From an uncultured Candidatus Actinomarina sp. (GTDB lineage Bacteria; Actinomycetota; Acidimicrobiia; Actinomarinales; Actinomarinaceae): a stretch of DNA of 64,000 nt. Of this stretch, positions 33,036 to 62,140 are shown piece by piece (the stretch's first letter is position 1; every line of letters begins with the position of its first letter). The notes under the pieces are model-generated. The model worked only from the letters and a program-made list of their open reading frames with translations. It did not search any database and was not told the DNA's origin. A program made the translations under genes and the position numbers. The DNA lies in the NCBI GenBank assembly GCA_902521955.1, contig CABYTP010000002.1, positions 55,404 through 119,403 of the forward strand. The letters are read 5' to 3'.

Positions 33036-33038
33036 GTT

Positions 33039-34454
33039 TTAATTGCCAAAAAATATTGATGACACTTCACCAAGATAGCTAAAAATTCCTGGAAAAATTC
33101 CTGAAATGAATGTTATTAACACGGTAAAAACTCCCACTACTTTTAAGGGGCTCTCAAATTTAAAGCTAGTTTCTGAATCTACATCCTTCAACTCATCCAT
33201 CCATATAACTTTTGAAATTCTTGCATAGTACACCAAAGCTATAACAGCATTTACTGCGCCAACAATTCCTAGTGTTAATCCTATTGGTTCACCCGTACTG
33301 AGCATACTTCTGAATACAACAAATTTTGCAAACCAACCACCTAGTGGGGGTATGCCAGCCAAGGAAAAAAAGAAAATTGTTGTTAAGACTCCTGTAATAG
33401 GTGATTTTTTTGCTATTCCTCCCCATTCATAAAAATTGGTTGATCCTGCATGGTTACTAAATAATTGAACAGTAAGGAATGCACCTAAATTCATAAATGC
33501 ATAAATAATTAGATAAGTGACACTAGCAAATATTCCATCTTGAAAGTTACCCGTAATACCGGCAACAGAAAGTGGGGCTAATATAAAACCTGCCTGTGCA
33601 ATTGAAGAGTATGCAAGAAGCCTAACTGGGTTAGATTGTTGTAATGCAACAAGATTGCCAAGCGTCATAGTTAGTCCTGCAATAATCGCCAAAATTACTC
33701 CCCAGCTTTCACCAGCACTACTAAAGACTTTTGTGAGCAAAATTATAAGCGCAACAAAACCAGTTGCTTTAGAACTTACAGATAAATAAGCAGTTACGGG
33801 TAATGGAGCTCCCTCATATGTATCTGGTGCCCATGAATGAAAGGGAACAATAGAGATTTTAAATCCTATTCCCGAAATTACCAATATTGCACTTAGCAAT
33901 AACACCGGTGAGGATTGAAGTGCTCCATTAATGATAAATGTAGATATTTCAGAAAAAACAATTTTTCCAGTTAAACCATAGAGAAGTGAAAATCCGTAAA
34001 GTATCAAAGATGCTGACAAAACACCAAGTAAGAAAAATTTTATAGCACCTTCATTAGACTTCCTGTCTCCTTTTTTCCAACCAGAGAGAAGAAACATTGG
34101 AGTGGATGCTAATTCTATTCCAATAAAAATGGTGAGTAAGTCTCTAGATGAGCTGACAATGAGTGCGCCCAAGAGAGAGCTCAACAAAAGATAGTAATAT
34201 TCTCCTTGATAATATTTATCACTTTCTATGAAGTTAATTGAAAGAAGAAATGTTAAATATGTTATCAAAATGAAAAGGCCTTTAAAAATAATAGAAAATT
34301 TATCAACAACAAAACTATCTTCAAATGCATATATTGGATTTGTATAGTTAACCCACTGGACTACAAGAGGTGCAAGTGAAAATAGAGTTCCTAAAAGTGC
34401 AAAAGCAGCTACATAGTACTTCGATCTTCTCGGAAGTATTAGGTCTAAAATCAA
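33039..34454 (-). CDS. nuoN: NADH-quinone oxidoreductase subunit N (cluster 1)
   Basis: 471-aa antiporter-like subunit at the operon end. Confidence 0.85.
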   Translation of the reverse strand: MILDLILPRRSKYYVAAFALLGTLFSLAPLVVQWVNYTNPIYAFEDSFVVDKFSIIFKGLFILITYLTFLLSINFIESDKYYQGEYYYLLLSSLLGALIVSSSRDLLTIFIGIELASTPMFLLSGWKKGDRKSNEGAIKFFLLGVLSASLILYGFSLLYGLTGKIVFSEISTFIINGALQSSPVLLLSAILVISGIGFKISIVPFHSWAPDTYEGAPLPVTAYLSVSSKATGFVALIILLTKVFSSAGESWGVILAIIAGLTMTLGNLVALQQSNPVRLLAYSSIAQAGFILAPLSVAGITGNFQDGIFASVTYLIIYAFMNLGAFLTVQLFSNHAGSTNFYEWGGIAKKSPITGVLTTIFFFSLAGIPPLGGWFAKFVVFRSMLSTGEPIGLTLGIVGAVNAVIALVYYARISKVIWMDELKDVDSETSFKFESPLKVVGVFTVLITFISGIFPGIFSYLGEVSSIFFGN

Positions 34455-34519
34455 AGTACCAACTATTGTAAAAACTACAATAAGTTCAGTAGATATTGCA
34501 AAGTAATTTATAGAAATTT

Positions 34520-36088: not shown

Positions 36089-36096
36089 TTTTCCTC

Positions 36097-38112
36097 CTAT
36101 ATAATAAATAAAATTAATAAACTAATTGTTACTACGCCACCTAAAAATAACATTAAATATTGTTGAGTTCTTCCAGTCTGAAGTAGTTTAACCCTTCCGC
36201 CAAAACTATCAGTACCACTTGATGACATATTCAGAAATCTATCAATACCATTTTGATCTAAATTGTTATAAACAACTCCTCCTAATAATGAAGCGATTTG
36301 GCCAACACCGTTTATAAACCTATCAATGACATTTGTATTAAATTTATCAACGGCTTTTGATATATTAATTTTTATTGGATCAATGATGAATCGAAAATAG
36401 AAATGATCTAAGTAGTATTTATTTTCTAATACTGTCCACACAGGCTGAATCTTAATTTTGTCATCTCCTGTTTCAGCACTGCCTTGCAATTGATATAAAT
36501 AATAACCCAATCCTATTCCAAGTAATCCCGCAATCAAACCACTTGATAATGCAAATAAGTCAAAGCTTTCAGGATGGTATTCGACTATTTTTGTTTTTCT
36601 GGTTGTAACCCAGTCAGTAAAGCCTGTGTAAACACCTGGTATGTTTACCCACCCAGAAGCAATAGCAAAAACTGCCAATGTTAAGAGCGGAGTAGTCATC
36701 ATATTGTGAGATTCATGAGGATGACCATGCCCTCTATATTCTCCTAAAAAAGTTAACGATACTGCTCTTGTCATATAGAAGGCAGTTATAAAAGCGCCTA
36801 AAACAGCTATGAAGAAAAAAGTAGTCTCACCTTCATGGTTAAATGAAGCAAGAATTTCATCTTTTGAGAAAAAACCTGCAAATGGAGGAAGGCCAGCCAA
36901 GGCAACGGTTCCGATAATAAAAGTTGTAAAAGTTTTTGGCATAACTTTTCTTAATCCACCCATCTCAAGCATGCTATTGCTATGGACAGCATGAATTACT
37001 GACCCAGCTCCTAAAAATAAGAGTGCTTTAAAAAAAGCATGTGTCCATAAATGGAACAATGCTGCAGTGTATGCTCCAGATCCAATTGCAGCAACCATAT
37101 AACCTAATTGACTTACCGTAGAATATGCCAAAACTTTTTTTAAGTCATCTTGAACAATAGCTATCAGGCCAGCTCCTAATAGCGTGATAACTCCAAATAG
37201 CATAACAATATCTAATGCTTCAGGAGCCATTGATTTATAGAAAGGAAACATACGTGCTAGTAAATAAACACCAGCAGTTACCATTGTTGCAGCATGCATT
37301 AATGCAGATACAGGTGTTGGACCTGCCATTGCATCAGGCAACCAAACATGAAGGGGGAATTGTGCACTTTTGCCCATGGCTCCAATAAAAAGCAAAATTG
37401 CAGCAGCAAAAGCTACCTTTGATAATTTTTCATAATCGTGTGTTGATTGGTATAGAATTTCTGAAATTCTTAATGTTCCAGTATTGAGAGCCAATATAAT
37501 GATTCCAATCATTAATCCAATATCTGCAATTTTGTTTGTTATGAAAGCTTTCATAGCTGCTGATGAATTATCTTTCTTTTCCCAGTAATGGCCAATTAAT
37601 AAATACGAGCATACTCCTACCAGCTCCCAGCCAATCAAAATTTGTATTAATGTAGGTGAGGAAACTAATACCAACATACTCCCAGCAAACAGTGTTAAAG
37701 AAGTAAAGAAGAAAGTGTATCTTATCTCACCCTCCATATAATTTGTAGCATAAATAAATACGAGCAGGGCGACAGTACCCACAACAAAATACATCATAAT
37801 TGAGAGCCCATCTACTACCCATCCAAATTCGATATCAAATTGACCTATGCTTCCAACATTGACAAAAAATTCACTTGCTACACCTTCTGTTATATGAATA
37901 AACATAAGTGAAACACTGTAAATAAATATGAGGGCAATTGTTCCAAGTGCTATCTCAGCACCTTTATATGGAAGATATTTTCCAATAAATGTAATGAATA
38001 ATGCTGCTACAAAAGGAAGGACAACTAAAGACCAAGAAAACTCAGCTAAAATACCACCATCAGTATAAACAAGTTCAGTCTCTGCTAAAAAATTAGCATC
38101 AAATTTTACCAT
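36097..38112 (-). CDS. nuoL: NADH-quinone oxidoreductase subunit L (cluster 1)
   Basis: 671 aa, antiporter-like plus a long C-terminal extension. Confidence 0.88.
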   Translation of the reverse strand: MVKFDANFLAETELVYTDGGILAEFSWSLVVLPFVAALFITFIGKYLPYKGAEIALGTIALIFIYSVSLMFIHITEGVASEFFVNVGSIGQFDIEFGWVVDGLSIMMYFVVGTVALLVFIYATNYMEGEIRYTFFFTSLTLFAGSMLVLVSSPTLIQILIGWELVGVCSYLLIGHYWEKKDNSSAAMKAFITNKIADIGLMIGIIILALNTGTLRISEILYQSTHDYEKLSKVAFAAAILLFIGAMGKSAQFPLHVWLPDAMAGPTPVSALMHAATMVTAGVYLLARMFPFYKSMAPEALDIVMLFGVITLLGAGLIAIVQDDLKKVLAYSTVSQLGYMVAAIGSGAYTAALFHLWTHAFFKALLFLGAGSVIHAVHSNSMLEMGGLRKVMPKTFTTFIIGTVALAGLPPFAGFFSKDEILASFNHEGETTFFFIAVLGAFITAFYMTRAVSLTFLGEYRGHGHPHESHNMMTTPLLTLAVFAIASGWVNIPGVYTGFTDWVTTRKTKIVEYHPESFDLFALSSGLIAGLLGIGLGYYLYQLQGSAETGDDKIKIQPVWTVLENKYYLDHFYFRFIIDPIKINISKAVDKFNTNVIDRFINGVGQIASLLGGVVYNNLDQNGIDRFLNMSSSGTDSFGGRVKLLQTGRTQQYLMLFLGGVVTISLLILFII

Positions 38113-38411
38113 TTCATCAAATCAAATTCGTTTATGTTAGCAGTTTGCCTATTTCTAAAAAGCATCAATACGATGGCTAGACCAATACCAACCTCTGCAG
38201 CAGCTATTGTAATTATAAAAATAGTAAAAATTTGGCCTTGCATTAATGAATCAGCAAGCATTGAATCAAAAATTATAAAATTAATATTTACAGCATTTAA
38301 TATCAACTCAATTGAAAGAAGAACCATGACCGCATTACGTCTAACCAGAATCCCGTAGATTCCTAATGAAAAAAGAGCGGCAGCTGTTACAAGTACTGGT
38401 TGAACTATCAT
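38106..38411 (-). CDS. nuoK: NADH-quinone oxidoreductase subunit K (cluster 1)
   Basis: 101 aa, 3 TM; conserved Glu in ...AAAEVGIGLA.... Confidence 0.88.
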   Translation of the reverse strand: MIVQPVLVTAAALFSLGIYGILVRRNAVMVLLSIELILNAVNINFIIFDSMLADSLMQGQIFTIFIITIAAAEVGIGLAIVLMLFRNRQTANINEFDLMKW

Positions 38412-38926
38412 ATTTGATCCTCATCAACAAGGGCTTCATCCTTTCTCGCTAAAGTTATTCCGCCAATTAATGCGGCTAATAAAACAAACGACACTATTTC
38501 AAATGGAAAAACAAAACGACTTAATAAAATTTCTCCTAGAAGTTCAGTTGAAGACCCAGATGTAATTACGATTTCACCATCAAATCCATTAATAAGGATA
38601 TAAGAAAAGAGCAAAAATATTGCACCCGATATTGTGGCACCAATTAATTTATTCTTATCATTATCTAACTCAGCATTTTTACCCAATGGAGCTCTTGTAA
38701 TCATTACCCCAAAAAGGAATAGAACTATAACTGCTCCGATGTAAACAAGGACAAGTACCAATGCCACAAATTGTGTGGATAAAAGCAAGAAAAGAGTTGC
38801 AGTAAGTGCAAGGGTGAAAACTAATGATATTGCTGCGTGAATGACATTTGAAGTTGTAACTACTCTTGCTGCTGAGAATAGAAGAAGTAATAAAGTAAAG
38901 TATGTAACGACTTCGTAAATTTCCAT
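38408..38926 (-). CDS. nuoJ: NADH-quinone oxidoreductase subunit J (cluster 1)
   Basis: 172-aa membrane subunit; operon position. Confidence 0.82.
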   Translation of the reverse strand: MEIYEVVTYFTLLLLLFSAARVVTTSNVIHAAISLVFTLALTATLFLLLSTQFVALVLVLVYIGAVIVLFLFGVMITRAPLGKNAELDNDKNKLIGATISGAIFLLFSYILINGFDGEIVITSGSSTELLGEILLSRFVFPFEIVSFVLLAALIGGITLARKDEALVDEDQI

Positions 38927-38927
38927 T

Positions 38928-39413
38928 TTAACTTTCTAAGCCTTGAGTATCAGGTACAGTTTTTAACCAATCGTCTAAACGTTCCTTATTGTGAAGCATG
39001 TCACCCATATTGAATTCAGAATACTCGTACTCAGGTGTCCAAAATAAAGCATCGAAAGGACAAACCTCAACACAGATTCCACAATACATACATAGTGCAT
39101 AATCAATATCAAATCTATCTAGAACAGCTCTACTTCTTTGTCTACCTCCAGGTTTTGAAGGGGGTTGTAATTCTTTATGTCCCTCAATATAAATACACCA
39201 ATCGGGGCATTGTCTTGCACACAACATACAACTAGTGCATGCTTCTTGATCTAAAGCAATAACTCCTCGTGCTCTTGGTGCAACTTTTTCCTTTTCAAAT
39301 GGATAATTTACATTTGGTTTTGAGTGAAATGGAGATAGGGTTTTAAGCATATTGACAATTACTATCTTTATTCCAATTAAGAATCCGGGAACTTTTGGTT
39401 TAAACGTTTTCAT
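38928..39413 (-). CDS. nuoI: NADH-quinone oxidoreductase subunit I (short, 161 aa; 2x[4Fe-4S])
   Basis: Two CxxCxxCxxxCP ferredoxin motifs (CTSCMLCARQCP, CMYCGICVEVCP). Confidence 0.9.
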   Translation of the reverse strand: MKTFKPKVPGFLIGIKIVIVNMLKTLSPFHSKPNVNYPFEKEKVAPRARGVIALDQEACTSCMLCARQCPDWCIYIEGHKELQPPSKPGGRQRSRAVLDRFDIDYALCMYCGICVEVCPFDALFWTPEYEYSEFNMGDMLHNKERLDDWLKTVPDTQGLES

Positions 39414-40384
39414 TAGAATCCAACTTTCATTATTGCAGTTACAAGAATATTAATTAAAGATGCAGGAATAAGTATTTTCCAAGCGAGGTTTTGAAGTTGA
39501 TCTTCTCGAAATCTTGGCTGTGACCACCTAACAGCTACCAATATAAAACCTAAAATAGCAGTCTTTGTTAATAAAACAACAGGTCCATAAAAATTTACCC
39601 ATTCAGTTGGCAAAAGTGGAACATGGTAACCTCCAAGAAATAAAGTCGAAGCAATTGCACATAAAATAAACATATTCATATATTCAGAAATATAAAAAAT
39701 AAGAAATCTAATTCCAGAGTATTCTGTCATAAATCCCATTGTCAGTTCTGATTCACCAATTGGCATATCAAAGGGCACTCTCATCATTTCAGCTGTTGCT
39801 GCAACCATAAATATCAGAAAGCCAACTATCTGGCCACCAACAACAAAAGGTACTCCCCATTCAATTTGTTTTTCTACAATCCCGACTAATGACATTGTTT
39901 CAGCTTGAATAACAACTCCAACAACAGCAAGTATCAGTGGAAGTTCGTACGCGATGAGCTGTCCTGCTGCTCTTAAACCACCCATAAGGGAATATTTGTT
40001 TGCTGATGACCATCCAGCAGTTAATACACCTATAGTTCCTAAAGAGCTTATGGCAAGTGCAAAGAAAACCCCTAATTCTAGATCTGCAACAACCAATGTA
40101 GGGCTCATTGGGACTACAGCAAAAAGCGCAACACAAGAAACCATAACATAAGCCGGAGCCCACTTAAATACTGGTCTGTCCACCTCAGTTGGGATTATGT
40201 CTTCTTTTTGAACAAATTTAAGTATTTCAGCAAGAGGAAATATGAAACCTCTAAGTCCTACATGTAATGGACCCGGTCTTCTCTGCATCCATGAAGCACC
40301 TTTAACATCCATAATAGTAAAAATGATTGCTCCATTTAATGCAGCAAGTGCAAGAAATCCTACCTTGACAAAGACTTCTGTCAT
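39413..40384 (-). CDS. nuoH: NADH-quinone oxidoreductase subunit H (cluster 1)
   Basis: 323-aa NuoH/ND1 family protein (…EYSGIRFLIFYISEYMNMF…). Confidence 0.9.
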   Translation of the reverse strand: MTEVFVKVGFLALAALNGAIIFTIMDVKGASWMQRRPGPLHVGLRGFIFPLAEILKFVQKEDIIPTEVDRPVFKWAPAYVMVSCVALFAVVPMSPTLVVADLELGVFFALAISSLGTIGVLTAGWSSANKYSLMGGLRAAGQLIAYELPLILAVVGVVIQAETMSLVGIVEKQIEWGVPFVVGGQIVGFLIFMVAATAEMMRVPFDMPIGESELTMGFMTEYSGIRFLIFYISEYMNMFILCAIASTLFLGGYHVPLLPTEWVNFYGPVVLLTKTAILGFILVAVRWSQPRFREDQLQNLAWKILIPASLINILVTAIMKVGF

Positions 40385-41577
40385 CTGTCCACATCTCCCA
40401 ATACAAAATCTAAACTACCCATTATGGCAATTAAATCTGGTAGTAAAGCGCCCTCGAGTAGCAAAGGTAAAATAGAAAGATTACTAAATGAAGCTGTTCG
40501 AACTTTAAGCCTATATGGTCCCAACCCTCCATCTGACACTATGTAGTAGCCCATTTCTCCTTTTGGATTTTCTGCCCTTACGTAAGTACGTCCTTTAGGG
40601 ACTTTTATAACTTTAGGTACCTTAGCTTGTAGTGGACCAGAAGGCATTGAGTCAATTGCTTGCAACACTATTTTTGCCGATTCAATCATTTCCTTGACTC
40701 TGACATCCCATCTATCATAACAATCTCCGTTCTCTCCAATAGGAATATCATATTCAAATTGATCATATGGCAAATAATCCATTTGAGTTCTTAAATCAGA
40801 CTTCACTCCTGAAGCCCTAAGTATTGGGCCGGATACTCCAAAGGCTTCTGCAGTCTCAGCAGATAAGATTCCAACATTTTTTGTTCTTTTTTTAAAAACT
40901 TCATTACCACCGATTAAATTTTGAAATTGATCAGCAGCCTCTATTACTTTTTGCATTGCTACTTTTGTATCTCTATAAAATCCAGCAGGTAAATCCTGGA
41001 TATCTTTTTTTGTGGTAGGGCCTGATCCAGCTGCTGGTTTTACTCCACCTATTCGATTAAAGTTTGGATGAAAGCGGCCACCAGTTACTGACTCAATTAA
41101 ATCTAAAACTCTTTCCCTGTCTTCCATTGCATAAAAAATTGGAGTCAATGCACCAACTTCAAGAGCGTACGCTCCATTAAATACAAAATGTGATGAAATT
41201 CTTGCCATCTCATTAAGAATTAACCTGATATGTTTGGCCCTTTCAGGTACTTCGATTTCCATTAATCTTTCTGCACCAGCAATAAATGGGATTTCATTAG
41301 AGAAACCAGCAACCCAATCTATGCGGTTAACAAGTGTAGTGATTTGAGGGTACGATCTCACTTCCGCAAGTTTTTCATAGCCACGATGCATATACCCAAG
41401 AACGGGTTTTACATCATGCACCTTTTCACCATCTACTTTTGCGACCAGTCTAAGTACTCCATGAGTTGATGGGTGTTGAGGACCTATGTTGAGCGTCATG
41501 TCTTCAGTTTCTATCTCTACAGATACAGATGCCTCTGAAAAATTATTAAAATTTTGGGGGTCTAATGTATTAACCAT
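40381..41577 (-). CDS. nuoD: NADH-quinone oxidoreductase subunit D (cluster 1)
   Basis: 398 aa, ...GPQHPSTHGVLRL...GYMHRGYEKL... 49-kDa-subunit signature. It directly abuts nuoH, with no nuoEFG between. Confidence 0.92.
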   Translation of the reverse strand: MVNTLDPQNFNNFSEASVSVEIETEDMTLNIGPQHPSTHGVLRLVAKVDGEKVHDVKPVLGYMHRGYEKLAEVRSYPQITTLVNRIDWVAGFSNEIPFIAGAERLMEIEVPERAKHIRLILNEMARISSHFVFNGAYALEVGALTPIFYAMEDRERVLDLIESVTGGRFHPNFNRIGGVKPAAGSGPTTKKDIQDLPAGFYRDTKVAMQKVIEAADQFQNLIGGNEVFKKRTKNVGILSAETAEAFGVSGPILRASGVKSDLRTQMDYLPYDQFEYDIPIGENGDCYDRWDVRVKEMIESAKIVLQAIDSMPSGPLQAKVPKVIKVPKGRTYVRAENPKGEMGYYIVSDGGLGPYRLKVRTASFSNLSILPLLLEGALLPDLIAIMGSLDFVLGDVDR

Positions 41578-42115
41578 CTACTGACTCATCACTTTCTGAT
41601 TCTTCTGGCATTCCTTCTACGTCAACTTCGCCAGGCCAAGGCTTAACTTCTCTACTAATTAATTCAAAAGACTTCAGCATAGGATTTCCCTCGTATCCAT
41701 CAGGAAGATATAATTTTTCAAGATTTGGATGGTTTTCAAAATTGATTCCAAACATTTCATATGCTTCTCTCTCATGCCAATTAGCACCTGCATATATTTC
41801 TACGAGAGAAGTAATCTTTGGCTCTGATTTATTAATGGTGGTTGATACAGTAACTAAATTGTTATTAGAAACATTAGACAAACATGTAATGATTTCAAAA
41901 CTTGGTGAAACCGTCTCCTTTGGTGCTTCTCCAGTGGAAACTTCATTATCCCAATCTATTGCAGATAGCCATGAGAAAAATTTTAAATCAAATTCATCTT
42001 TAAGTTTTTGATGTGTCTCGATCCACTTAGATGATTCAACCTTGATGTTGATTGTTTCAAATGCTACATCTGTCTTAATAAAATTTTCTTGTATTTTACT
42101 TAAAAATTCTTCCAT
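41570..42115 (-). CDS. nuoC: NADH-quinone oxidoreductase subunit C (cluster 1)
   Basis: 181-aa 30-kDa-subunit family protein with an acidic C-terminus. Confidence 0.85.
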   Translation of the reverse strand: MEEFLSKIQENFIKTDVAFETINIKVESSKWIETHQKLKDEFDLKFFSWLSAIDWDNEVSTGEAPKETVSPSFEIITCLSNVSNNNLVTVSTTINKSEPKITSLVEIYAGANWHEREAYEMFGINFENHPNLEKLYLPDGYEGNPMLKSFELISREVKPWPGEVDVEGMPEESESDESVDG

Positions 42116-42116
42116 C

Positions 42117-42614
42117 TTATATTGGCTCTGTTTGGACTTCTGTCCATTTTTCTTTCATGTCTTCTCCACGAATTTTTTTCTGAAGAAGAATAATTCCTTC
42201 CTGAAGTGCTTCTGGCCTTGGAGGACATCCGGGAACATAAACATCTACAGGAATTAATTGGTCAACTCCCTTTGTGACTGAATAAGAATCCCAATATGGA
42301 CCTCCACTATTTGAACAGGAACCCATAGAAATAACATACTTTGGTTCTGGCATTTGATCGTAGAGCCTTTTAACTGATGGGGCCATTTTATCTGTTACTG
42401 TTCCAGCAACAATCATAAAATCGGCTTGTCTCGGAGATGCGGGTAATGGAATGACTCCTAATCTCATAAAATCGTGTCTCGGCCCACTTACTGCCATAAC
42501 CTCAATTGCACAGCACGCTAACCCGAACTGAAAATACCAAAGTGAGTATGATCTAGCCCAATTAAATACAGATGATATTGGCTTTGGAAGACCGAATTTA
42601 TCAACTATTCCCAT
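42117..42614 (-). CDS. nuoB: NADH-quinone oxidoreductase subunit B (cluster 1)
   Basis: N2-cluster Cys ligands (CCAIE..., [13 protein letters not shown]). Confidence 0.92.
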
Positions 42615-42970
42615 TTGAGTACATCCTTTCTAATAGCGTATATGAGACCAATTAATAAGATGAATATAAAAACAAACATCTCAATTAATCCAAAATAGCC
42701 AAGTTTTTCCAGGTTAATAGCCCATGGAAATATAAATACTGCTTCTACATCAAAAATTACAAATAGTAAACCAAATATATAATACCTAACATATGTTTGG
42801 CTCCATCCGGAACCTACTGGGTCTACACCACACTCATAAGTTTGGAGCTTTTCTGCATAAGGCTTATTAGGCCTAAGGACAGATGCTACACCAAGTAAAA
42901 GCACGACCAAAAAAAGTCCAAATCCTAGCACTGCTGCTATGGTCACATAATCTTGAAAATAAGAAATCAT
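42605..42970 (-). CDS. nuoA: NADH-quinone oxidoreductase subunit A (cluster 1)
   Basis: 121-aa, 3-TM ND3 family protein; first gene of the operon. Confidence 0.88.
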
Positions 42971-43050: not shown

Positions 43051-44139
43051 GTGATTAACAAAAATTTTTTACAAGAAGCAAGTCTGTTACAACTTTCAGA
43101 AGAGATTTTCAGCACCGTTATAAATGATAGAGTGGAATTAAATTCTATTCAGAACCTGTTAACTGAGAAGGTTAAAGAGGCAGAAACAATTAATTTTATA
43201 CTTGCCGATGGACTTGGATATAAAAATTTAATATCACTTGAGACTTCTCTAAAAGAAAACATAAAAAAAATAATAAATACTACATTCCCCTCCTCAACAA
43301 ATGTTGCGCTAACTACGTTTGCAATGATGAGGAATCCCATAGATCATGGAATTCTTGGTTACTACATGTACGATAGAAACAAGTTTGGATTAATTAATGC
43401 ACTTAATTGGAATAATGAAAACAAATCTCTTTTAGGTAATAATCATTTTAAAAATCAAGAATCTATTTGGAAAAAATTAAAATCACTCAATACACATGTG
43501 TCTAACTTTCAACCAGAAAACTTAGTAGGTAGTGCATTGTCAAACTTCCTATATGAAAAAAGCAGTACAGTACCTTATAAAACGCTAGATAATCTTATAG
43601 AAATGCTTTCAGAAGCATCTTTCCTAGAGAATAGATTTAATTTTATTTACTATCCAAATGTCGATATTGCTGGACATATTTTTGGGGTCTATTCTGCTGA
43701 GTGGGAACTTGAAATAAAAAAATTTGAAAAAGCGGTTGAAAGAATTTCTCAAGCAAGTAACAAGAAAACTACAACAATAATTTCAGCTGATCATGGGTTA
43801 TGTAATATTCCACTTGAGAATAGGCATAATTTATCTTACAAAAATAGTATTCAGATATATGGAGACCAACGGTCGGTTTATATAAATGGAACTAGAAGTG
43901 AAGTTGAAAAGGTTTTTTCAAACATACCTGGTGATCTTATTAGTAGATCTGATTTGAAACATCTCTTAAAAGAACCGGGTAATAGCTATATTGAAGCGTT
44001 TTATCCAGATTATTGTTTCCTTCTTAAGGAAAATCACATAATATATCCAAAGCATTTACAAGCTGAACTAAAAGGCTACCACGGTGGACTAACTGAAGAA
44101 GAATTAAAAATTCCAATTATAGAGATTCATAATTTTTGA
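43051..44139 (+). CDS. alkaline-phosphatase-superfamily phosphodiesterase/nucleotide pyrophosphatase-like enzyme (cytoplasmic)
   Basis: N-terminal ILADGLGY metal-Asp motif, ...NVDIAGHIFG... and ...ISADHGL... (DHG) motifs of the type-I phosphodiesterase fold; no signal peptide. Confidence 0.65.
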   Translation: MINKNFLQEASLLQLSEEIFSTVINDRVELNSIQNLLTEKVKEAETINFILADGLGYKNLISLETSLKENIKKIINTTFPSSTNVALTTFAMMRNPIDHGILGYYMYDRNKFGLINALNWNNENKSLLGNNHFKNQESIWKKLKSLNTHVSNFQPENLVGSALSNFLYEKSSTVPYKTLDNLIEMLSEASFLENRFNFIYYPNVDIAGHIFGVYSAEWELEIKKFEKAVERISQASNKKTTTIISADHGLCNIPLENRHNLSYKNSIQIYGDQRSVYINGTRSEVEKVFSNIPGDLISRSDLKHLLKEPGNSYIEAFYPDYCFLLKENHIIYPKHLQAELKGYHGGLTEEELKIPIIEIHNF

Positions 44140-44158: not shown

Positions 44159-44953
44159 ATGAGTAAAAAGCTATTGTTGTTTGTTTTTATTTTGGTTTTT
44201 ATTGGTTGTGGTAGTAATGGAATGCAATCAGAGGGCTACCCAGAACCGTTTATAGGCGGAGGAGTTGAGGATATGTCTTTAAGTAGGTCAGAATCAATTT
44301 CAAATTCTTCAACTTCTCAGGGAGATTATATTATCAAAACGGCATATGCCAGCACTGATGTAAGCTCGTCAAATTTTAATAGCACAATTAAAAGTGTAGA
44401 AAATATGGTAAAAAGTTATGGAGGGAATATCTCAAATACATATCTTTCTACTAATTACCAAGGACTTCAAAGTTATAGCTTAACAATAAACATTCCTGCT
44501 GTGGATTTTGAAGAATTTCTTTCTGAAGTTGAAGAACTATCTAGTTTTACGAACATTAGTTCAAATGCAAATGATGTAACTCGGTATGTTGTTGATATTG
44601 ATTCAAGACTGAAATCTTTATATAGTGAAAAAGAAGCATTACAAGATATTAAAGATGAGGCAACTTCTACCTCTGATAAACTTCAGGTTCAGTCTCAATT
44701 AAGGTATATAAATCAAGACATTGAAATGCTCCAGGGACAAAAAGAATTTTATGAAAACTCTACATCGTTTTCTACGCTCACATTAGAAATTAGGGAAGGA
44801 TCTGGTGTGTCACTCTTTTCTTGGAATTATTATGTGCAAAGAGCTTTAGGTTGGACTGAAAGTATTATTGGAATTTCTGTATCGATCTCAATCATCCTTA
44901 TACCAATCGGATTTATATTTTTTGGTATAAGAAAATTAAGAAATAAAAAATAA
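44159..44953 (+). CDS. lipoprotein with C-terminal TM anchor (DUF4349-like architecture)
   Basis: Lipobox FIGCGS after the signal peptide, Ser/Asn-rich and coiled-coil middle region, terminal hydrophobic helix plus KLRNKK. Confidence 0.55.
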   Translation: MSKKLLLFVFILVFIGCGSNGMQSEGYPEPFIGGGVEDMSLSRSESISNSSTSQGDYIIKTAYASTDVSSSNFNSTIKSVENMVKSYGGNISNTYLSTNYQGLQSYSLTINIPAVDFEEFLSEVEELSSFTNISSNANDVTRYVVDIDSRLKSLYSEKEALQDIKDEATSTSDKLQVQSQLRYINQDIEMLQGQKEFYENSTSFSTLTLEIREGSGVSLFSWNYYVQRALGWTESIIGISVSISIILIPIGFIFFGIRKLRNKK

Positions 44954-45028: not shown

Positions 45029-45832
45029 TTAATTTGGTTGATAGGTACCAAAAAAGACTTGCCATGCAAGACATGTCTTAGCTAGTAAGCTAAGCCAGAT
45101 ATATGCTCTCTCACCGTATAGGTAGTCTTTCCATTTTCCAACTTGTTTATATTGCAAAATCATATTTATAGAAAATGTGTTAAAAAATAGGAATATACTC
45201 ACAAATATCCACACTACAAATTGTGGAACTCCTTGAGGATTAGAATCAGTTGCCACTCCATCTCCTATTAAATTTATAAATATAAATATCCACGGAGCAA
45301 CACCAACAAGACAACCCATAATATAACTTGTCCAATCAACTTTTTCTGTATATTGATTATGGACTTCCATCATCCAGCCAAACCAACACATGGCAGCATT
45401 CATAAAGAATATTCCAGCCAAAGCCCAAATATCATAAATTCCAACAAGTAAAGCAATTAAGACGATCATAACTGATGCACTTATTGAATATTCAATCCAT
45501 CGAACTTTGTTAATTCCTTTTGATAAGTCTTCTTTATATTTGTTATAGAAAGGTCCAGAAATCAAATAGTGTGCAACAGCTGATGCAAGTAAGAAAGTAG
45601 CTACTGCTGGTCCAAAATTTGTAACTTCAGTCCAAATTTCTAATTCAGGAATTAAAGCAAAGCTTGAAGGATCCTCAGGTGAACCAACGCCAACAAGTTG
45701 TGTTAAGGTTATCGGTACGACAAAATCTGAATTGACAACTGTTCCAAGCCAAAATAACAAACCACCCTGTATCAGATGAACGGTTCCCATAATAATATTG
45801 AACCTTTTAAGTTTTTTAATTTTTAAATCCAC
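45029..45832 (-). CDS. heliorhodopsin (retinal-binding 7TM photoreceptor, inverted topology)
   Basis: 267 aa, 7 TM. Strong by-eye similarity to heliorhodopsin 48C12 blocks: RFNIIMGTVHLIQ / NSDFVVPITLTQ (N-terminus), RWIEYSISASVMIVLIA (TM3, Glu114 at the counterion position), GERAYIWLSLLAKTCLAWQVFFGT (TM7, Lys252 at the Schiff-base position). GTG start preceded by a GGGGA RBS. Confidence 0.88.
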   Translation of the reverse strand: MDLKIKKLKRFNIIMGTVHLIQGGLLFWLGTVVNSDFVVPITLTQLVGVGSPEDPSSFALIPELEIWTEVTNFGPAVATFLLASAVAHYLISGPFYNKYKEDLSKGINKVRWIEYSISASVMIVLIALLVGIYDIWALAGIFFMNAAMCWFGWMMEVHNQYTEKVDWTSYIMGCLVGVAPWIFIFINLIGDGVATDSNPQGVPQFVVWIFVSIFLFFNTFSINMILQYKQVGKWKDYLYGERAYIWLSLLAKTCLAWQVFFGTYQPN

Positions 45833-45889
45833 TTTTCCCCTTTAATAAATTCTTATGTATAACCTTAGTTTTTAATTTAATATTAAATA

Positions 45890-46084
45890 ATGGATAAACA
45901 ACTTATTTTCTCTGAAATAGAATCAATTATGTTTGATTTAGAAACATTGATCAAATCTCTTGCTAATTCACGAGAATATATAGCAGGTGAAGATTTTTCA
46001 AGAGCATCAGGAAAACTTTCAGAATTAGAGATTGAGCTACAATCCCTAGCCGGTAGAGTAGCCTATATTAAATCAAACCTTTGA
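45890..46084 (+). CDS. hypothetical small soluble protein (64 aa)
   Basis: ORF divergent from the heliorhodopsin gene; predicted helical/coiled (…LSELEIELQSLAGRVAYIKSNL); no known motif. Confidence 0.3.
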   Translation: MDKQLIFSEIESIMFDLETLIKSLANSREYIAGEDFSRASGKLSELEIELQSLAGRVAYIKSNL

Positions 46085-47098
46085 TGGAAAAGTAGTAACT
46101 TCAGATATCTCTACAGTTACTTTATCTCCTGATTCGTAAATTGTATTTGGAAGAGAACGTGCTCTAAAAATTTCGCCTTTATTATTACTAAAAGAAATTA
46201 CTTGATCATGGCCATAAAAGGTACATTCTGTAACTATATAACTACCCTTTGTATCTAGTGTTAACTCTATACATTCCGGCCTTATTGATACATCCAGAGC
46301 GCCATTATATGCAGAAACAAATGAGCCAAGTGAAGTTTCAACTAGGCCATTAACTGAAAACCCTTTAATAATATTTGGATCTCCTACTGAGTTTGCAACT
46401 GTTTGGCTTACAGGATTTAAATAAATTTCTTGAGGAGTAGCACTTTGGATAACTTTTCCATTCTCTAGAACGCTTACTACATCACATACAGAGAGGGCTT
46501 CTTCTTGGTCATGCGTAACAATTATGGCTGTTGTTTCTGTTTCTCTAAGAAGTGATATGACTTCATCTCTTAAATCTCTAGCCATATGGGCATCTAGACT
46601 TGTGAAGGGTTCGTCTAATAAGATTACTTCGGGTTTTGGTGCTATTGCTCTTGCGAGAGCTACTCTTTGCTGTTGACCCCCAGAAAGTTCTTGCGGTAGC
46701 TTGGAACTATAGTTATTTAAATTACACATATTTATAACTTCTTCCAACCTTCCACTTTTAATTTGATCTTTCGATAGTCCAAATGCAATATTACTTTTTA
46801 CATCTAAATGAGGAAATAGTGCATAATCTTGAAAAACCATTCCAACATTTCTTTCTTCAGGTGGTAAATAGATTTCTTCACTAGAAATAATCTCATTTCG
46901 CATTTCAATAATCCCACTATCAGGTTTTTCAAATCCAGCTATAAGTCTAAGAGCTGTAGTCTTTCCGGAACCTGAGACACCTAAAATTCCTACGATTGCA
47001 CCGTTCCAAACGTCAAGATTAAAATCAGACAGGACTTTTTCGGAGCCATAAGATTTAGCTATAGAACGAGCTCTAATGATTAAATTATCGTATGCCAT
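46073..47098 (-). CDS. ABC transporter ATP-binding protein, FbpC/PotA-like with C-terminal TOBE-type domain (putative Fe3+ import)
   Basis: Walker A GVSGSGKTT, signature LSGGQQQRVALARA, Walker B ILLDEP; 341 aa. Confidence 0.85.
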   Translation of the reverse strand: MAYDNLIIRARSIAKSYGSEKVLSDFNLDVWNGAIVGILGVSGSGKTTALRLIAGFEKPDSGIIEMRNEIISSEEIYLPPEERNVGMVFQDYALFPHLDVKSNIAFGLSKDQIKSGRLEEVINMCNLNNYSSKLPQELSGGQQQRVALARAIAPKPEVILLDEPFTSLDAHMARDLRDEVISLLRETETTAIIVTHDQEEALSVCDVVSVLENGKVIQSATPQEIYLNPVSQTVANSVGDPNIIKGFSVNGLVETSLGSFVSAYNGALDVSIRPECIELTLDTKGSYIVTECTFYGHDQVISFSNNKGEIFRARSLPNTIYESGDKVTVEISEVTTFPSKV

Positions 47099-48654
47099 TA
47101 GTTGTCTAAACTCCTCGTACTAAGTATATACGTAGGAAAAGCACTAATTGCCAACAAAATAAATCCGGAAAAAGCAGCTTGAGTAAACAATGCTTCTGAC
47201 GCATTGGACCAAATATCTACAGCCATAGTACTAAAACCAGTTGGTCTTAATAGTAATGTTTGTGGCAACTCTTTCATTGTGGATAAGAATACCAAAGCAG
47301 CTCCTGCAAGAAGTCCTTTATAAATTAAAGGAAAAGTAACTTTAAAAAATGTATCTAATTTTGATAATCCAAGTCCAGCACTTGCTTCAATGTAAGAGAT
47401 TTTAACTTGTTCCATCGATGCTTGTCCCCCTCCAACAGCTTGTGGTAAAAACACAATTAAGTATGAGATTATTAGTGTTATAAAAGTTTGATAAATTGAG
47501 GGGAAAATTTTTATTGTAATAAATAACATCGAAATCCCGACTGCAATGTGTGGTAGACCATAAAGAGTGAGTGTAACTTTTTCAAATAAATCTCCAAATT
47601 TTGATTTATATTGGGAGATCATCACAACGATTGGGGTAGCTATAACCATCGCAAAGAATGATGTTACTGTTGCGGCAGTTAAAGAACCAGCAACACCTGC
47701 TAATGATCCAGATATCTGAATTCCATTAGATATACCCCTAATCAACCAATATGAAAGAACACCAACAGGTAAAAGTAAACTAAAAAATATTACAATGCCG
47801 AAAAATAATAAAACTAAATATTTGCTAGTTTTTGAAAGCTCAATCCTAATTGGCTCTCTTGGTGTACCAGAGACTTTTGCTGACTTACTCATTTCACTAC
47901 CCCTTTGGGCAAAACTTATGATTAATGCAAGAACAATCAAAATCGTTGAGTAAAAAATTACTGGATCACCATTTATATTGATAACATAATAAGAATAAAT
48001 AGCTTTTGTCATTGTTCCATATTTCATTAGGGAAACAGCACCAAAATCAGAAATTACATACAAACCGACTAAAAGTGAAGAATATATCATTGGCTTTTTT
48101 AACCTTGGAATAACCACGCTTGTATACATCTTTATTCTTTTGACGCCTAATGACCTTGCAGCATCTTCAACTGTTGAATCTAAATTCCTCAAGGCACTAC
48201 TGCAAATCAACTGAACATAAGGATATGTAAATAAAGTTAAAACAATCCAGCTTCCAATAAAACCTTCTATTCCTACGATTTCAGATAAACCATATCTAGA
48301 AAATATATCAACAAACAGGCCTTTTGGAGAAAAAGCAGATACATATGTCAAAGCACCAATGTAAGAAGGAATTACAAGGGGTAAAATCGTCAAACTAAAT
48401 AAAAATTTAGATCCAGGAAATTTATACCTAACAGTAAGAATTGATATTGATAATCCCAATAATAGACTTGTGAAAACGACAGCAAAAAAAAGAAATAAAG
48501 TATTAATTAAAAGAGTTGATACATCCCATGAATTTAAAAAACGGGAAAGGTTTTTAGATAAATCTACAAATCTCCAAAATAAATAAAAAAGTGGCATTAA
48601 AAATAAAGAGAGTATAAATACATTAGTTGATAATAAAAGTTTAGGTGTTTTCAC
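47098..48654 (-). CDS. ABC transporter permease, duplicated 12-TM FbpB-type
   Basis: 518 aa with two internally repeated six-TM permease halves; operon with the ATPase and binding protein. Confidence 0.8.
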   Translation of the reverse strand: MKTPKLLLSTNVFILSLFLMPLFYLFWRFVDLSKNLSRFLNSWDVSTLLINTLFLFFAVVFTSLLLGLSISILTVRYKFPGSKFLFSLTILPLVIPSYIGALTYVSAFSPKGLFVDIFSRYGLSEIVGIEGFIGSWIVLTLFTYPYVQLICSSALRNLDSTVEDAARSLGVKRIKMYTSVVIPRLKKPMIYSSLLVGLYVISDFGAVSLMKYGTMTKAIYSYYVININGDPVIFYSTILIVLALIISFAQRGSEMSKSAKVSGTPREPIRIELSKTSKYLVLLFFGIVIFFSLLLPVGVLSYWLIRGISNGIQISGSLAGVAGSLTAATVTSFFAMVIATPIVVMISQYKSKFGDLFEKVTLTLYGLPHIAVGISMLFITIKIFPSIYQTFITLIISYLIVFLPQAVGGGQASMEQVKISYIEASAGLGLSKLDTFFKVTFPLIYKGLLAGAALVFLSTMKELPQTLLLRPTGFSTMAVDIWSNASEALFTQAAFSGFILLAISAFPTYILSTRSLDN

Positions 48655-48755: not shown

Positions 48756-49874
48756 CTAATATCCGGCTTGAGCAATCAATTCGACAGCTTTTTCTTGCCA
48801 TAAGGCTAGTGCTGACCAGTTCAAGTTTGAAGGAGAGTTCAAACTATTAATGTCTGGCAACAAAGCATTTGGCTCAATACCTTCAACAAGAGGGAACTCG
48901 TATACTGTATTTGTAAATGTCTCTTGAGCTGACTTTGAATGTAAGAATTCAACGAATGCCATAGCTGCTGGTTTATTTTGGCTTGAGGACAAAATTCCAA
49001 CACCTGCAGGCATAACCATTGCTCCACAACCACCATCTAGGAACACATTCTTAATTGGAGCAGAAGGATCTTCTGCTAAAACTCTTAATGTGTAGTAATG
49101 GTTAATCATTCCAATATCAAGTTCACCAGCAGCTGCAGCAGCAACTTGTGGTGAGTTCTTAGGATATTCTCCGTATCCAAGACCATTTATTGTTGTTAAC
49201 CAATCTAGAACTTTTTCTTCACCATCTGATTCGATCATACATGCAACCATTGCTAAGAATGATCCATTAGTTGGTGCTAAACCTAATCTATTTCTAAACT
49301 TTTCATCAGCAAGACCATAAATATCACCAGGTAATTCTGCGTCAGTGACATCTCTTGTGTCAACAACTAGTGATCTTGATCTTCCAGATGTACCAACCCA
49401 GTATCCATTTTTGTCTACTGCCCATGCTGGGACATTGTCTAGAACGCTTTCAGGAAGTCGATCAAACAATCCTTCTTTGGCAATTACACCAAGACTGACA
49501 GGATCTTGAGAAAAGAATACGTCTGCTGGGCTAATAGCTCCTTCAAGAACTACTGTACCTGCTAGAGCCGGGCTCTTTGCGTATCTTACTTCAACTTCAA
49601 CTCCTGAAGTTGCAGCAAACTCTGCAATGATGTCGGCGACTAAGCTTTCTTTTCTACCACTATAGATAACTAGAGTTCCGCCAACTTTGGCTGAATCTTC
49701 TGTTAAAGCAGCTTCTACGGCTGCGTCAATAGCTTCCTGTGATACTTCTCCTGCTGGACCTGCTTCTCCTGCTGGTCCTTGCTCTCCTGCTGGTCCTTGC
49801 TCTCCTGCTGTAGGCGAACAAGCTGTTAAAACCATCATTAAAGCAATTAAAGTAACTGTTAATTTTTTATTCAT
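48756..49874 (-). CDS. ABC transporter substrate-binding lipoprotein (Fe3+-type, FbpA/AfuA-like) with collagen-like N-terminal linker
   Basis: Lipobox LTAC, then (GEQGPAG)n linker, then a periplasmic-binding-protein fold of ~330 aa. Confidence 0.75.
   Translation of the reverse strand: MNKKLTVTLIALMMVLTACSPTAGEQGPAGEQGPAGEAGPAGEVSQEAIDAAVEAALTEDSAKVGGTLVIYSGRKESLVADIIAEFAATSGVEVEVRYAKSPALAGTVVLEGAISPADVFFSQDPVSLGVIAKEGLFDRLPESVLDNVPAWAVDKNGYWVGTSGRSRSLVVDTRDVTDAELPGDIYGLADEKFRNRLGLAPTNGSFLAMVACMIESDGEEKVLDWLTTINGLGYGEYPKNSPQVAAAAAGELDIGMINHYYTLRVLAEDPSAPIKNVFLDGGCGAMVMPAGVGILSSSQNKPAAMAFVEFLHSKSAQETFTNTVYEFPLVEGIEPNALLPDINSLNSPSNLNWSALALWQEKAVELIAQAGY
49746..49817 (-). repeat. tandem 18-21-nt repeats encoding a GEQGPAGEQGPAGEAGPAGE linker
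   Basis: Direct nucleotide repeats CCTGCTGGTCCTTGCTCT x3 visible on the plus strand. Confidence 0.8.
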
Positions 49875-50005: not shown

Positions 50006-51025
50006 ATGTCTCTTAATAAAAATGAAGGTGTCCTTTTAATTAACCTTGGTTCTCCAAAAGAACTTTCTAAAAAATCTGTTCGTGAATATTTAAAAGTTTT
50101 TCTATCAGATGATAATGTTGTTGACTTACCTAAAATGTTACAACAGTTTCTACTTCGATTTTTTATTCTTCCATTTAGACCGAAAAAAACACTTGAGGCT
50201 TACGAACTAATATGGACAAAAGAAGGGTCTCCCCTAATTGTGTCAACTCAAAGTATTGCTGAAAAGCTCTCAAAAAAAACTGGTTGGATTGTTGAGTATG
50301 CAATGAGATACGAAGACCCAAGTATTGAAAATGCATTATTAAATTTAAAAAATAAAGGTATAAAAAAAATAAATGTCATATCTCTCTATCCACATAATGC
50401 TATGGCAACAACAATAACTACTGAAATGGAGACAAGACTAGTTGCTAATAAAGTAGACAAAGATTTTGAATTAGTCTTTACGAAACCATTTTTTGATAAC
50501 GAAATCTACATTGATGCTATGACAAATACAATTAAACCCTATTTGGAGAATGAGTCATTTGATAAGATAATTTTTAGTTATCATGGAATACCTAAAAGAC
50601 AAGCCATGAAAACAGATGAGACGGGAGAGCACTGTTTTTCAACAAATGCATGTTGTGAATTAGAAAATCTTGGATCAAAAGATTGTTACAGATCTCACAC
50701 CAGGATAGCCTCTGATCTTACTGCAAAAAAACTAGGTTTAAATGAAAGTGAATGGGAAATTGCTTATCAATCAAGAATCGGCCCTGGTTGGCTAACACCG
50801 TTTACTGATAAAAGATTAGCTCAGCTTCCTGAAGAAGGTAAGGATAAAATTGCTATATTATGCCCTTCATTTATTTCAGATTGTCTTGAAACACTTGAAG
50901 AAATAGATATTAGAGGTAGAAAAACTTTTATAGATGCGGGTGGTAAAGAAATGACTTACATCCCATGTTTGAATGATTCAGACGATACTATTAAATTATT
51001 AGAAAATCTAATTGAGAGTAGCTGA
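50006..51025 (+). CDS. hemH: ferrochelatase (likely coproporphyrin-type in an actinobacterium) with internal 4-Cys insertion
   Basis: GVLLINLGSP N-terminus, ferrochelatase fold throughout, Cys210/216/217/227 cluster (HCFSTNACCELENLGSKDC). Confidence 0.85.
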   Translation: MSLNKNEGVLLINLGSPKELSKKSVREYLKVFLSDDNVVDLPKMLQQFLLRFFILPFRPKKTLEAYELIWTKEGSPLIVSTQSIAEKLSKKTGWIVEYAMRYEDPSIENALLNLKNKGIKKINVISLYPHNAMATTITTEMETRLVANKVDKDFELVFTKPFFDNEIYIDAMTNTIKPYLENESFDKIIFSYHGIPKRQAMKTDETGEHCFSTNACCELENLGSKDCYRSHTRIASDLTAKKLGLNESEWEIAYQSRIGPGWLTPFTDKRLAQLPEEGKDKIAILCPSFISDCLETLEEIDIRGRKTFIDAGGKEMTYIPCLNDSDDTIKLLENLIESS

Positions 51026-51303: not shown

Positions 51304-51987
51304 ATGAATAATAATCCAAATGTATTTCCCCAAAGAGAGATTGAGAAGCTCCCAAATTCTTTTTACTCTCACGCAGAGGCTATATTCCACTTAAGCGAAG
51401 TCGGAATTGAAGTTAAGCAAACTCGTGTAGCTGACTGGCTTGGAGTAAGTAGAGCTAATGTTTCACAAGTAACTGGAAGAATGCAAAACAGCGGTTTGGT
51501 GAAACTTGGTGATGAATTAGAACTTACTGAAAAAGGTTCCTACTTAGCAAAAATGATTTCACGAAGGAGAAGAATTGTAGAGAGATTCTTGTCTGAGATT
51601 CTAGATTTATCTTGGGATAAGGTCTATATGGAAACCAAAAATTGGGAAAATGTATTAAGTCCTATTACTGAAGATGCTATGTTAAAAATACTAGGAAATC
51701 CTACTACTGGTCTATTTGGAAATCCAATTCCTTATTCAGGTTATTTTGAAGGGCCTATGAAAAGACTATTTGATGTTAAAACAAAAAAGAAATACTCTAT
51801 TATAAAAATTTCGGAAGAGCTAAAAAGAGATAGCTCTGTAATTTCATTTCTCCAAAAAAATGAAATACTGCCAGGAAACAAAATATATATATCAGACACT
51901 AATAATTATTCAATAACAGTAAGTGTCAGCAAAGATAAGTTTTTTGGCTTAGATCAGTTTATTGCAGAGAGAGTATTCGTAGGATAA
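51304..51987 (+). CDS. DtxR/IdeR/MntR-family metal-dependent transcriptional regulator with C-terminal SH3-like (FeoA-type) domain
   Basis: HTH ...RVADWLGVSRANVSQVTGRM..., dimerisation region ...RRRIVERFLSEILDL..., ...GNPIPYSG... hinge; 227 aa. Confidence 0.78.
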   Translation: MNNNPNVFPQREIEKLPNSFYSHAEAIFHLSEVGIEVKQTRVADWLGVSRANVSQVTGRMQNSGLVKLGDELELTEKGSYLAKMISRRRRIVERFLSEILDLSWDKVYMETKNWENVLSPITEDAMLKILGNPTTGLFGNPIPYSGYFEGPMKRLFDVKTKKKYSIIKISEELKRDSSVISFLQKNEILPGNKIYISDTNNYSITVSVSKDKFFGLDQFIAERVFVG

Positions 51988-62138: not shown

Positions 62139-62140
62139 AA

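Follow-up and report, generated by a model that had tools for sequence, protein, structure and literature searches.

What does a heliorhodopsin (HeR) do in a streamlined retinal auxotroph of the sunlit ocean, and does it act on the products of the genes beside which it is encoded? The question is raised by a gene at positions 45029 to 45832 of a 64,000-nucleotide stretch of DNA from contig CABYTP010000002.1 (hereafter, the window), a locus of Candidatus Actinomarina (OCS155 cluster, order Actinomarinales). A first-pass annotation of the letters had read the product as a HeR encoded next to an iron-homeostasis cluster. We find it practically certain that the protein is a HeR; with somewhat better than even confidence we favor the joint reading that it is a HeR and that it works as a slow-cycling sensor or regulator. 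The gene is constrained to the same degree as core respiratory subunits, and the transporter genes upstream of it have probably had an evolutionary history of their own.

Identity, constraint and proposed mode of action

The profiles of curated HeR families match the protein far above their cut-offs: Pfam PF18761 is matched with 295.2 bits (E value, 4.4e-88; cut-off, 26.7 bits) over profile positions 1 to 241 of 242, and the NCBIfam HeR equivalog NF038020 is matched with 310.3 bits (cut-off, 100). A chance match is excluded because the E values of the profile hidden Markov models (HMMs) range from 1e-88 to 1e-93. Solved HeRs in the PDB are matched at E values of 6e-67 to 2e-55, with 5.8e-67 for TaHeR (6is6) and 5.6e-56 for 48C12 (6su3). 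An AlphaFold2 model built with 27 diverse homologues (mean predicted local distance difference test score [pLDDT], 84.6; predicted template-modeling score, 0.77) has seven helices and, in the first extracellular loop (ECL1), which joins transmembrane helices TM1 and TM2, a β-hairpin with strands at residues 41 to 49 and 59 to 67. The ten best Foldseek matches of this model in the PDB are all HeR structures (template-modeling [TM] scores of 0.75 to 0.86; E values no higher than 2e-15); type-1 rhodopsins match it only at E values of at least 1.7e-3 and with 8 to 16% identity. All 12 Lys and Arg residues of the loops lie on the N-terminal side of the membrane, a distribution that, under the positive-inside rule, predicts a cytoplasmic N terminus and, hence, the inverted topology. 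A profile-HMM search and a structure prediction, two of the checks that the first-pass annotation had proposed, thus returned the HeR fold with its N terminus predicted to lie inside.

The residues of the HeR chromophore site are in place. The TM3 motif R111-W112-I113-E114-Y115-S116 has the form RWxEYS, aligns with R104 to S109 of 48C12 and contains a single Glu counterion. H19, H88, R111, E114, E156, S248 and K252 correspond to H23, H80, R104, E107, E149, S237 and K241 of 48C12, and all seven are invariant in an alignment of 27 HeRs; K252 is also aligned with K238 of TaHeR. Each of the four sequence blocks quoted in the first-pass annotation was recovered at the residues claimed (RFNIIMGTVHLIQ at 10 to 22, NSDFVVPITLTQ at 34 to 45, RWIEYSISASVMIVLIA at 111 to 127 and GERAYIWLSLLAKTCLAWQVFFGT at 240 to 263), as were Glu114 and Lys252, the latter with its codon at the expected place (Table 1). 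A type-1 rhodopsin, such as a proteorhodopsin or MACRhodopsin, was rejected: the protein has no match to the Bac_rhodopsin family of Pfam, contains no DTx motif and has the opposite predicted topology. The retinal-binding lysine of TM7 is present.

The open reading frame (ORF) itself is as originally described, with 267 codons and a GTG start; a 99%-identical orthologue (L001) has ATG at the same position. The GGGGA ribosome-binding site (RBS) claimed for it lies 3 nt from the GTG, and a GGGG or GGAG motif is kept before the start across genera in the Actinomarinales orthologues. Genes on the opposite strand flank the HeR gene on both sides, orf64 upstream and a DUF4349 gene downstream, and this arrangement fits a monocistronic HeR better than it does a long afu-HeR-nuo transcript. 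A scan of positions 42900 to 47200, which are AT rich, found 16 consensus promoters and 4 terminators, compared with 19.5 ± 4.3 and 2.1 ± 1.8 in shuffled sequence; the counts do not exceed those of shuffled DNA, and the scan is therefore silent on operon structure.

Full-length matches with 84 to 99% identity to the HeR were found in 53 species-representative genomes, together with one partial contig, and the next relatives are about 56% identical. Against eight congeners, the nonsynonymous divergence (dN) of the HeR is 0.023 to 0.060 and its ratio to synonymous divergence (dS) is about 0.014 to 0.04, the ratios being approximate, as dS is saturated. This dN is similar to that of NuoA and NuoB and is 3 to 10 times lower than that of AfuABC, HemH or DtxR. 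The low ratio and the invariance of Lys252 led us to reject a relic or pseudogene that yields an apoprotein in a cell that makes no retinal. Actinomarina is a very abundant photoheterotroph of the sunlit ocean, with an intensely streamlined genome of about 1.1 Mb; that a retinal auxotroph of this kind constrains its HeR as it does core subunits of the respiratory chain implies that the protein has an important light-dependent role.

In their account of the gene content of the order, López-Pérez et al. (2020; PMC7771536) describe a type-1 MACRhodopsin and a HeR in every member of the Actinomarinales and an absence of retinal-synthesis genes. Since the order lacks these genes, the cell would have to scavenge retinal, which it would also need for its MACRhodopsin proton pump. 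We propose that the HeR would bind all-trans-retinal at Lys252, with Glu114 as the counterion, and that it would act as a slow-cycling photosensor without transporting ions. A long-lived photointermediate would shift the conformation of the basic cytoplasmic loops, and the altered loops may then modulate a partner protein through direct contact, by analogy with other HeRs. That the protein is nontransporting is suggested by its set of intramembrane carboxylates, which is the same as that of the nontransporting TaHeR, and by TM5 and TM6, in which there is no Asp or Glu. Charged residues lie in the first (K98, K100, K105, K109 and R111) and third (K229, K233, K235 and D236) intracellular loops (ICL1 and ICL3) and match charged positions that HeRs use for partner binding (PMC11109279), and regulation of a partner has been shown for glutamine synthetase, photolyase and the transporter OmrDE (PMC9529153, PMC9769723 and PMC11109279).

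Several considerations weigh against a sensory mode of this kind. Retinal binding, the photocycle and the lack of transport are all deduced, for the Actinomarinales HeR, from its sequence. Conservation, whether computed per residue or per region, is not biased toward the cytoplasmic over the extracellular face. The basic loop residues occur throughout the family, and the positive-inside rule would also predict them; they are thus no specific sign of partner binding and do not identify a partner. Finally, no partner of a known type is encoded in an operon with the gene. The evidence favors none of the candidates at the locus, namely, complex I, AfuBC and orf64, and a partner encoded elsewhere in the genome is at least as likely. 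We consider it unlikely that the HeR is a daylight sensor that directly gates AfuBC, a complex I without NuoEFG or the orf64 product. Were this so, respiration or the uptake of nutrients would be under the control of light in a photoheterotroph that ranks among the most abundant in the ocean, and the pairing would be the first HeR-regulated ABC importer, the first association of a HeR with a respiratory complex or a new soluble HeR transducer, respectively. Whichever protein it may be, knowing the partner would make the role of HeRs clearer in an organism of global importance.

Neighboring genes as candidate partners

Bulzu et al. (2021; bioRxiv 10.1101/2021.02.01.429150, PMC8612252) assign the HeRs of this order to their cluster C11. 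Their description of the locus gives a series of genes conserved on one strand, afuA-afuB-afuC-HeR-nuoABCDHIJKLMN-NDUFAF7-htpX-pspE-adenosine kinase; gene gains and losses are confined to the opposite strand, and the HeR is suggested to be, perhaps, a light switch for energy metabolism. The same layout, in which HeR follows afuABC and precedes an 11-subunit nuo operon, is reproduced in the window, and the same-strand genes are present in all of the 53 Actinomarinales loci that extend far enough. The turnover of opposite-strand genes likewise repeats the published observation: DUF4349, hemH and dtxR genes are variably present (Table 1), so that the makeup of the “iron-homeostasis cluster” varies even among members of one order.

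The foremost of the rival explanations holds that the HeR is a light-dependent modulator of the AfuABC importer that would match Fe3+ uptake to daylight; its model is OcHeR, which binds OmrDE and upregulates it (PMC11109279). Wherever a locus extends far enough, the afu genes directly precede HeR and share its strand, Bulzu et al. proposed in their treatment of the locus that HeR and afu form a common unit (PMC8612252), the HeR has the basic residues in ICL1 and ICL3, and a theme of iron would suit the hemH and dtxR genes close by. The two sets of genes, however, do not diverge together. Over the 53 loci, the identity of the HeR correlates with that of AfuA, AfuB and AfuC with Spearman rho values of 0.36, 0.53 and 0.56, compared with 0.74 for nuoB, 0.82 for nuoA and 0.91 for tdk, whereas the Afu genes correlate with each other at 0.76 to 0.86, in the manner of a cassette with a separate history. 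In certain genomes the HeR is 98% identical and the Afu proteins are just 71 to 79% identical; dS for afuA and afuB is unusually low (0.4 to 0.75) against some genomes whose flanking genes show dS above 1. These patterns indicate a history of the cassette separate from that of the HeR, probably by recombination or allele replacement, and this decoupling, to which the higher dN of the Afu proteins adds, argues against a tightly coevolving HeR-Afu complex.

Other evidence on the importer points the same way. The afuC-HeR gap of 240 bp holds orf64 on the opposite strand, which makes a single operon doubtful, and OmrDE is a fused-domain heterodimeric exporter, whereas an importer dependent on a substrate-binding protein (SBP) is encoded here. 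Neither afu nor hemH nor dtxR lies near the HeR gene in any of 26 distant HeR loci or beside P0024 and P0025, the two closest HeRs outside the group (about 56% identical), the gene context of which is unrelated to that of the Actinomarina locus. In the genome comparison of López-Pérez et al. (PMC7771536), the Actinomarinales are syntenic throughout, and the adjacency of HeR and afu therefore amounts to one evolutionary observation. A search for the IdeR/DtxR box TWAGGTWAGSCTWACCTWA with up to 3 mismatches found no match in the window. The first-pass annotation had spoken of an Fe3+-type importer; the ATPase, the permease and the SBP are all there, but none of these proteins reaches an NCBIfam equivalog cut-off, and the iron specificity is not established, the label deriving from family resemblance, an assignment in KEGG taken from the literature and context. 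The DtxR-type repressor scores 110 bits against the NCBIfam DtxR model, under the cut-off of 290 bits. We regard the link between HeR and iron as weak and light-dependent modulation of AfuABC as decidedly unlikely.

In a second explanation, that of Bulzu et al., the HeR would let light switch the adjacent complex I, which lacks NuoEFG, or respiration in general, and would coordinate respiratory proton pumping with light-driven pumping by MACRhodopsin. The gene content reported by López-Pérez et al. includes one Actinomarinales nuo cluster without subunits E, F and G (PMC7771536), and nuoABCDHIJKLMN lies downstream of the HeR gene, on the same strand, in all orthologous loci. HeR divergence follows that of nuoA and nuoB, all of them very strongly constrained; the correlation is, however, matched by that with the unrelated core gene tdk and therefore reflects the phylogeny of the species. 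Between HeR and nuoA lie one or two opposite-strand genes (encoding a phosphodiesterase and the DUF4349 protein; about 2 kb), which makes cotranscription unlikely. In an unrelated locus of the Coriobacteriia (L075; metagenome-assembled genome [MAG] SKMN01000024.1), homologues of nuoA and nuoB follow a HeR gene on its own strand at a distance of about 6.5 kb, but this is probably a coincidence, as the arrangement is absent from other HeR loci of that class; all other distant HeR loci have no nuo genes nearby. An interaction between a HeR and complex I would be without precedent, and control of respiration in this manner appears very unlikely.

It is also highly improbable that the protein either transports protons, as V2HeR3 does, or is a light-driven enzyme that acts on a small anion in the cytoplasmic cavity, as Kovalev et al. 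proposed. The polar residues of that cavity (H19, H88, E114, E156 and S248) are conserved, some viral HeRs transport protons (PMC12873467), and the enzymatic idea has been raised for this clade in the discussion of its rhodopsins (PMC7771536). The intramembrane carboxylates are, nevertheless, those of the nontransporting TaHeR, with no extra Glu in TM5 or TM6; transport is seen in neither TaHeR nor 48C12, the nearest relatives of known structure (PMC12873467), and enzymatic activity has been demonstrated for no HeR.

The small divergent ORF recorded upstream of the HeR gene, here called orf64, was confirmed. It overlaps the 3' end of afuC by its own final 12 nt. A tblastn search recovered a recognizable orthologue with a conserved core in 51 of the 53 loci, its start always 25 to 68 nt from that of the HeR gene, and the dN/dS ratio is 0.05 to 0.13: orf64 is a real gene under purifying selection. 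The AlphaFold2 model (pLDDT, 96) consists of helices at residues 3 to 32 and 36 to 62. There is no Pfam or NCBIfam match; a word-indexed search found close relatives only, and in an exhaustive search of 1.84e9 representatives with an HMM, 15 sequences matched at E values up to 1e-3, most of them orthologues of orf64 itself, judged by their lengths and identifiers. Foldseek comparison with the PDB returned generic helical hairpins only (E value above 0.7). By these sequence searches, orf64 is restricted to the Actinomarinales. No similar ORF was found beside the HeR gene in the 26 distant loci (best E value, 0.017). That the HeR acts with this small, soluble helical hairpin as its cytoplasmic transducer or regulator is the least probable of the explanations weighed here: the gene is the sole opposite-strand neighbor retained almost everywhere, it is confined to the same order as this HeR clade, and selection on it and its confidently predicted fold speak in its favor, but distant HeR loci hold nothing comparable, it has neither a functional annotation nor an informative structural match, a helical hairpin suits many roles, and in genomes of such high synteny a gene may be retained just because it belongs to the core.

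The gene neighborhood and its earlier descriptions

The features of the locus are collected in Table 1. The HeR gene lies between two nuo clusters, in the first of which D is followed directly by H in the Pfam assignments; the nuoK gene of the second is presumably located in the gap at 62139 to 62441. The first-pass annotation had described the HeR gene as divergent from the ABC importer, ferrochelatase and DtxR genes and convergent with a DUF4349-like gene. The convergent neighbor was confirmed, and orf64, hemH and dtxR are indeed on the opposite strand, but the ABC genes (46073 to 49874) are on the minus strand, codirectional with HeR and upstream of it.

Table 1. Coordinates in the window of the HeR gene, its functional sites and the surrounding genes
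Feature	Position	Strand	Evidence or remarks
HeR coding sequence	45029..45832	-	267 aa, GTG start; PF18761, NF038020, 6is6, AlphaFold2/Foldseek
Lys252 codon AAG, TM7 retinal Schiff-base lysine (48C12 K241)	45077..45079	-	Invariant in 27 diverse HeRs
Glu114 codon GAA, TM3 Schiff-base counterion (48C12 E107, TaHeR E108)	45491..45493	-	Invariant
GGGGA ribosome-binding site	45836..45840	-	3 nt 5' of the HeR GTG
orf64, 64 aa, divergent from HeR (57-nt spacer)	45890..46084	+	Predicted two-helix hairpin
ABC transporter ATPase, afuC-like, with TOBE domain	46073..47098	-	Pfam ABC_tran 2.7e-33 and TOBE_2
Double-domain ABC importer permease, afuB-like	47098..48654	-	Pfam BPD_transp_1, two stretches
Lipoprotein SBP, afuA-like, with Gly/Pro/Glu-rich linker	48756..49874	-	Pfam SBP_bac_6, SBP_bac_11, SBP_bac_1
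Ferrochelatase, hemH	50006..51025	+	PF00762 6e-88; in 27/53 loci
DtxR/MntR-family metal-dependent repressor	51304..51987	+	Pfam Fe_dep_repr_C, Fe_dep_repress; in 43/53 loci
DUF4349 membrane protein or lipoprotein gene, convergent with HeR	44159..44953	+	PF14257 2.5e-37; in 34/53 loci
Type I phosphodiesterase/nucleotide pyrophosphatase family gene, between HeR and nuoA	43051..44139	+	PF01663 5.8e-17
11-subunit complex I operon nuoA-B-C-D-H-I-J-K-L-M-N, no nuoEFG, downstream of HeR	33039..42970	-	Pfam, all 11 subunits
Second nuo operon, 3' part (nuoI, J, L, M, N)	57257..63584	-	Pfam

The absence of retinal-biosynthesis genes from the window, claimed in the first-pass annotation, was upheld by a Pfam scan of 54 window ORFs, which found no retinal-synthesis or type-1 rhodopsin family; rpoB, rpoC and about 10 small ORFs of the ribosomal-protein operons were identified by context and left out of the scan.

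Much of this is correct but not new. The novelty implied for the gene, its iron and nuo neighborhood and the lack of retinal synthesis is not upheld, in that the HeR gene, its nuo, afuABC, hemH and dtxR context and the absence of retinal-synthesis genes were already published for the clade in 2020 and 2021, in the locus and genome descriptions of López-Pérez et al. and Bulzu et al. (PMC7771536 and PMC8612252). Compared with the published C11 locus, the present one has the same gene in the same layout, with hemH and dtxR nearby and a second nuo operon, and shows no substantive difference. The locus descriptions in those two papers make no mention of orf64 or of the decoupled evolution of afu. 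What we add are modest refinements: a quantified constraint on the HeR, the independence of the afu genes from it and the conserved small divergent gene.

A HeR of the Actinomarina type (96% identity), in the same synteny, was also seen on a 6.3-kb contig binned as “Proteobacteria bacterium” (L054; JAQBWI010000065.1); the contig is probably misbinned in that MAG.

Several further features of the window were noted. Downstream of the nuo operon and on the same strand, the region 29855 to 42970 (minus strand) continues with genes for an NDUFAF7-like Methyltransf_28 protein, an M48/HtpX-like peptidase, a rhodanese and a PfkB kinase. F420H2 and ferredoxin are candidate electron donors for the 11-subunit complex. 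TTAAC-based inverted repeats are found upstream of afuA, at 49899 to 49928. Within afuA, an 18-nt tandem repeat at 49747 to 49810 (minus strand; 3.6 copies, 93% matches) encodes the linker GEQGPAGEQGPAGEAGPAGE that directly follows the lipobox (LTAC) of the SBP and is probably a flexible tether of variable length. The spacer between hemH and dtxR (51026 to 51303) is 278 bp long, compared with a genome median of about 3 bp, and contains only small ORFs of 23 to 49 codons; an inverted repeat in it (51128 to 51167; 16 nt, 94% complementary) was dropped from consideration, as it is not kept in orthologous loci. Next to a tRNA cluster, in the region 26604 to 27559, a gene for an extracytoplasmic function (ECF)-type sigma factor (26975 to 27559, minus strand) is followed by a 124-codon ORF without a Pfam match, whose product is a possible anti-sigma factor; the sigma factor is worthy of note in an order with very few of them.

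Comparison with characterized heliorhodopsins

The closest relative of known structure is TaHeR from the Thermoplasmatales archaeon SG8-52-1 (6is6, 7clj and 7u55), with 46 to 48% identity and TM scores of 0.81 to 0.86. Both proteins have the counterion Glu, the Schiff-base Lys, the two His residues near the Schiff base and, in TM3, an EYSISAS motif that contains Ala, and they have the same set of intramembrane carboxylates. They differ in ECL1, which is about 10 residues longer in the Actinomarina HeR, and in the third extracellular loop, where the latter has an 8-residue insertion; furthermore, Asn145 replaces a Thr of TaHeR, and the residues after the Schiff-base Lys are T253-C254 rather than Ser-Ala.

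The protein is somewhat more distant from 48C12, from a freshwater actinobacterial fosmid (6su3, 6su4 and 6uh3), with 43 to 45% identity and TM scores of 0.75 to 0.82. The named functional residues of 48C12 are all kept. Ser112 of 48C12 makes a Ser-Asn bond that has been linked to faster kinetics; the equivalent residue in Actinomarina is Ala119, as in the slow-cycling TaHeR, and the Ser-Asn bond is therefore absent. In the viral V2HeR3, an extra Glu (E191) is needed for proton transport and is described as absent from TaHeR-like HeRs (PMC12873467); our comparison with V2HeR3 was made through the TaHeR-like carboxylate set and this published description rather than by direct alignment.

The first-pass annotation had called the function of HeRs unresolved. 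This still holds for Actinomarina but is partly outdated for the family, in which glutamine synthetase, photolyase and an ABC exporter have been identified as partners and viral members transport protons (PMC9529153, PMC9769723, PMC11109279 and PMC12873467). Of these systems, OcHeR-OmrDE (PMC11109279) is the one in which a HeR gene likewise adjoins ABC transporter genes on the same strand, and the Actinomarina protein shares with OcHeR the basic ICL1 residues and the K/R-x3-K/R-x-K/R-D pattern in ICL3. OmrDE, however, is a heterodimeric multidrug exporter whose chains each fuse a transmembrane domain to a nucleotide-binding domain and are encoded with helR in one operon under a single promoter, whereas the neighbor in Actinomarina comprises a separate ATPase, a double-domain permease and an SBP, the components of a binding-protein-dependent importer. 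In Actinomarina, moreover, an opposite-strand gene splits the HeR gene from the ABC genes, and the evolution of the two is decoupled.

Unlike the partners in the AbHeR and TfHeR systems, neither glutamine synthetase (glnA) nor photolyase is encoded at the Actinomarina locus; an Actinomarinales photolyase gene adjoins the type-1 MACRhodopsin gene elsewhere in the genome, according to the rhodopsin gene contexts given by López-Pérez et al. (PMC7771536). The mode of action that we propose for the Actinomarina HeR would, all the same, be that of AbHeR with glutamine synthetase and of TfHeR with photolyase (PMC9529153 and PMC9769723), in which the light-activated rhodopsin binds a partner enzyme and modulates its activity through the cytoplasmic face.

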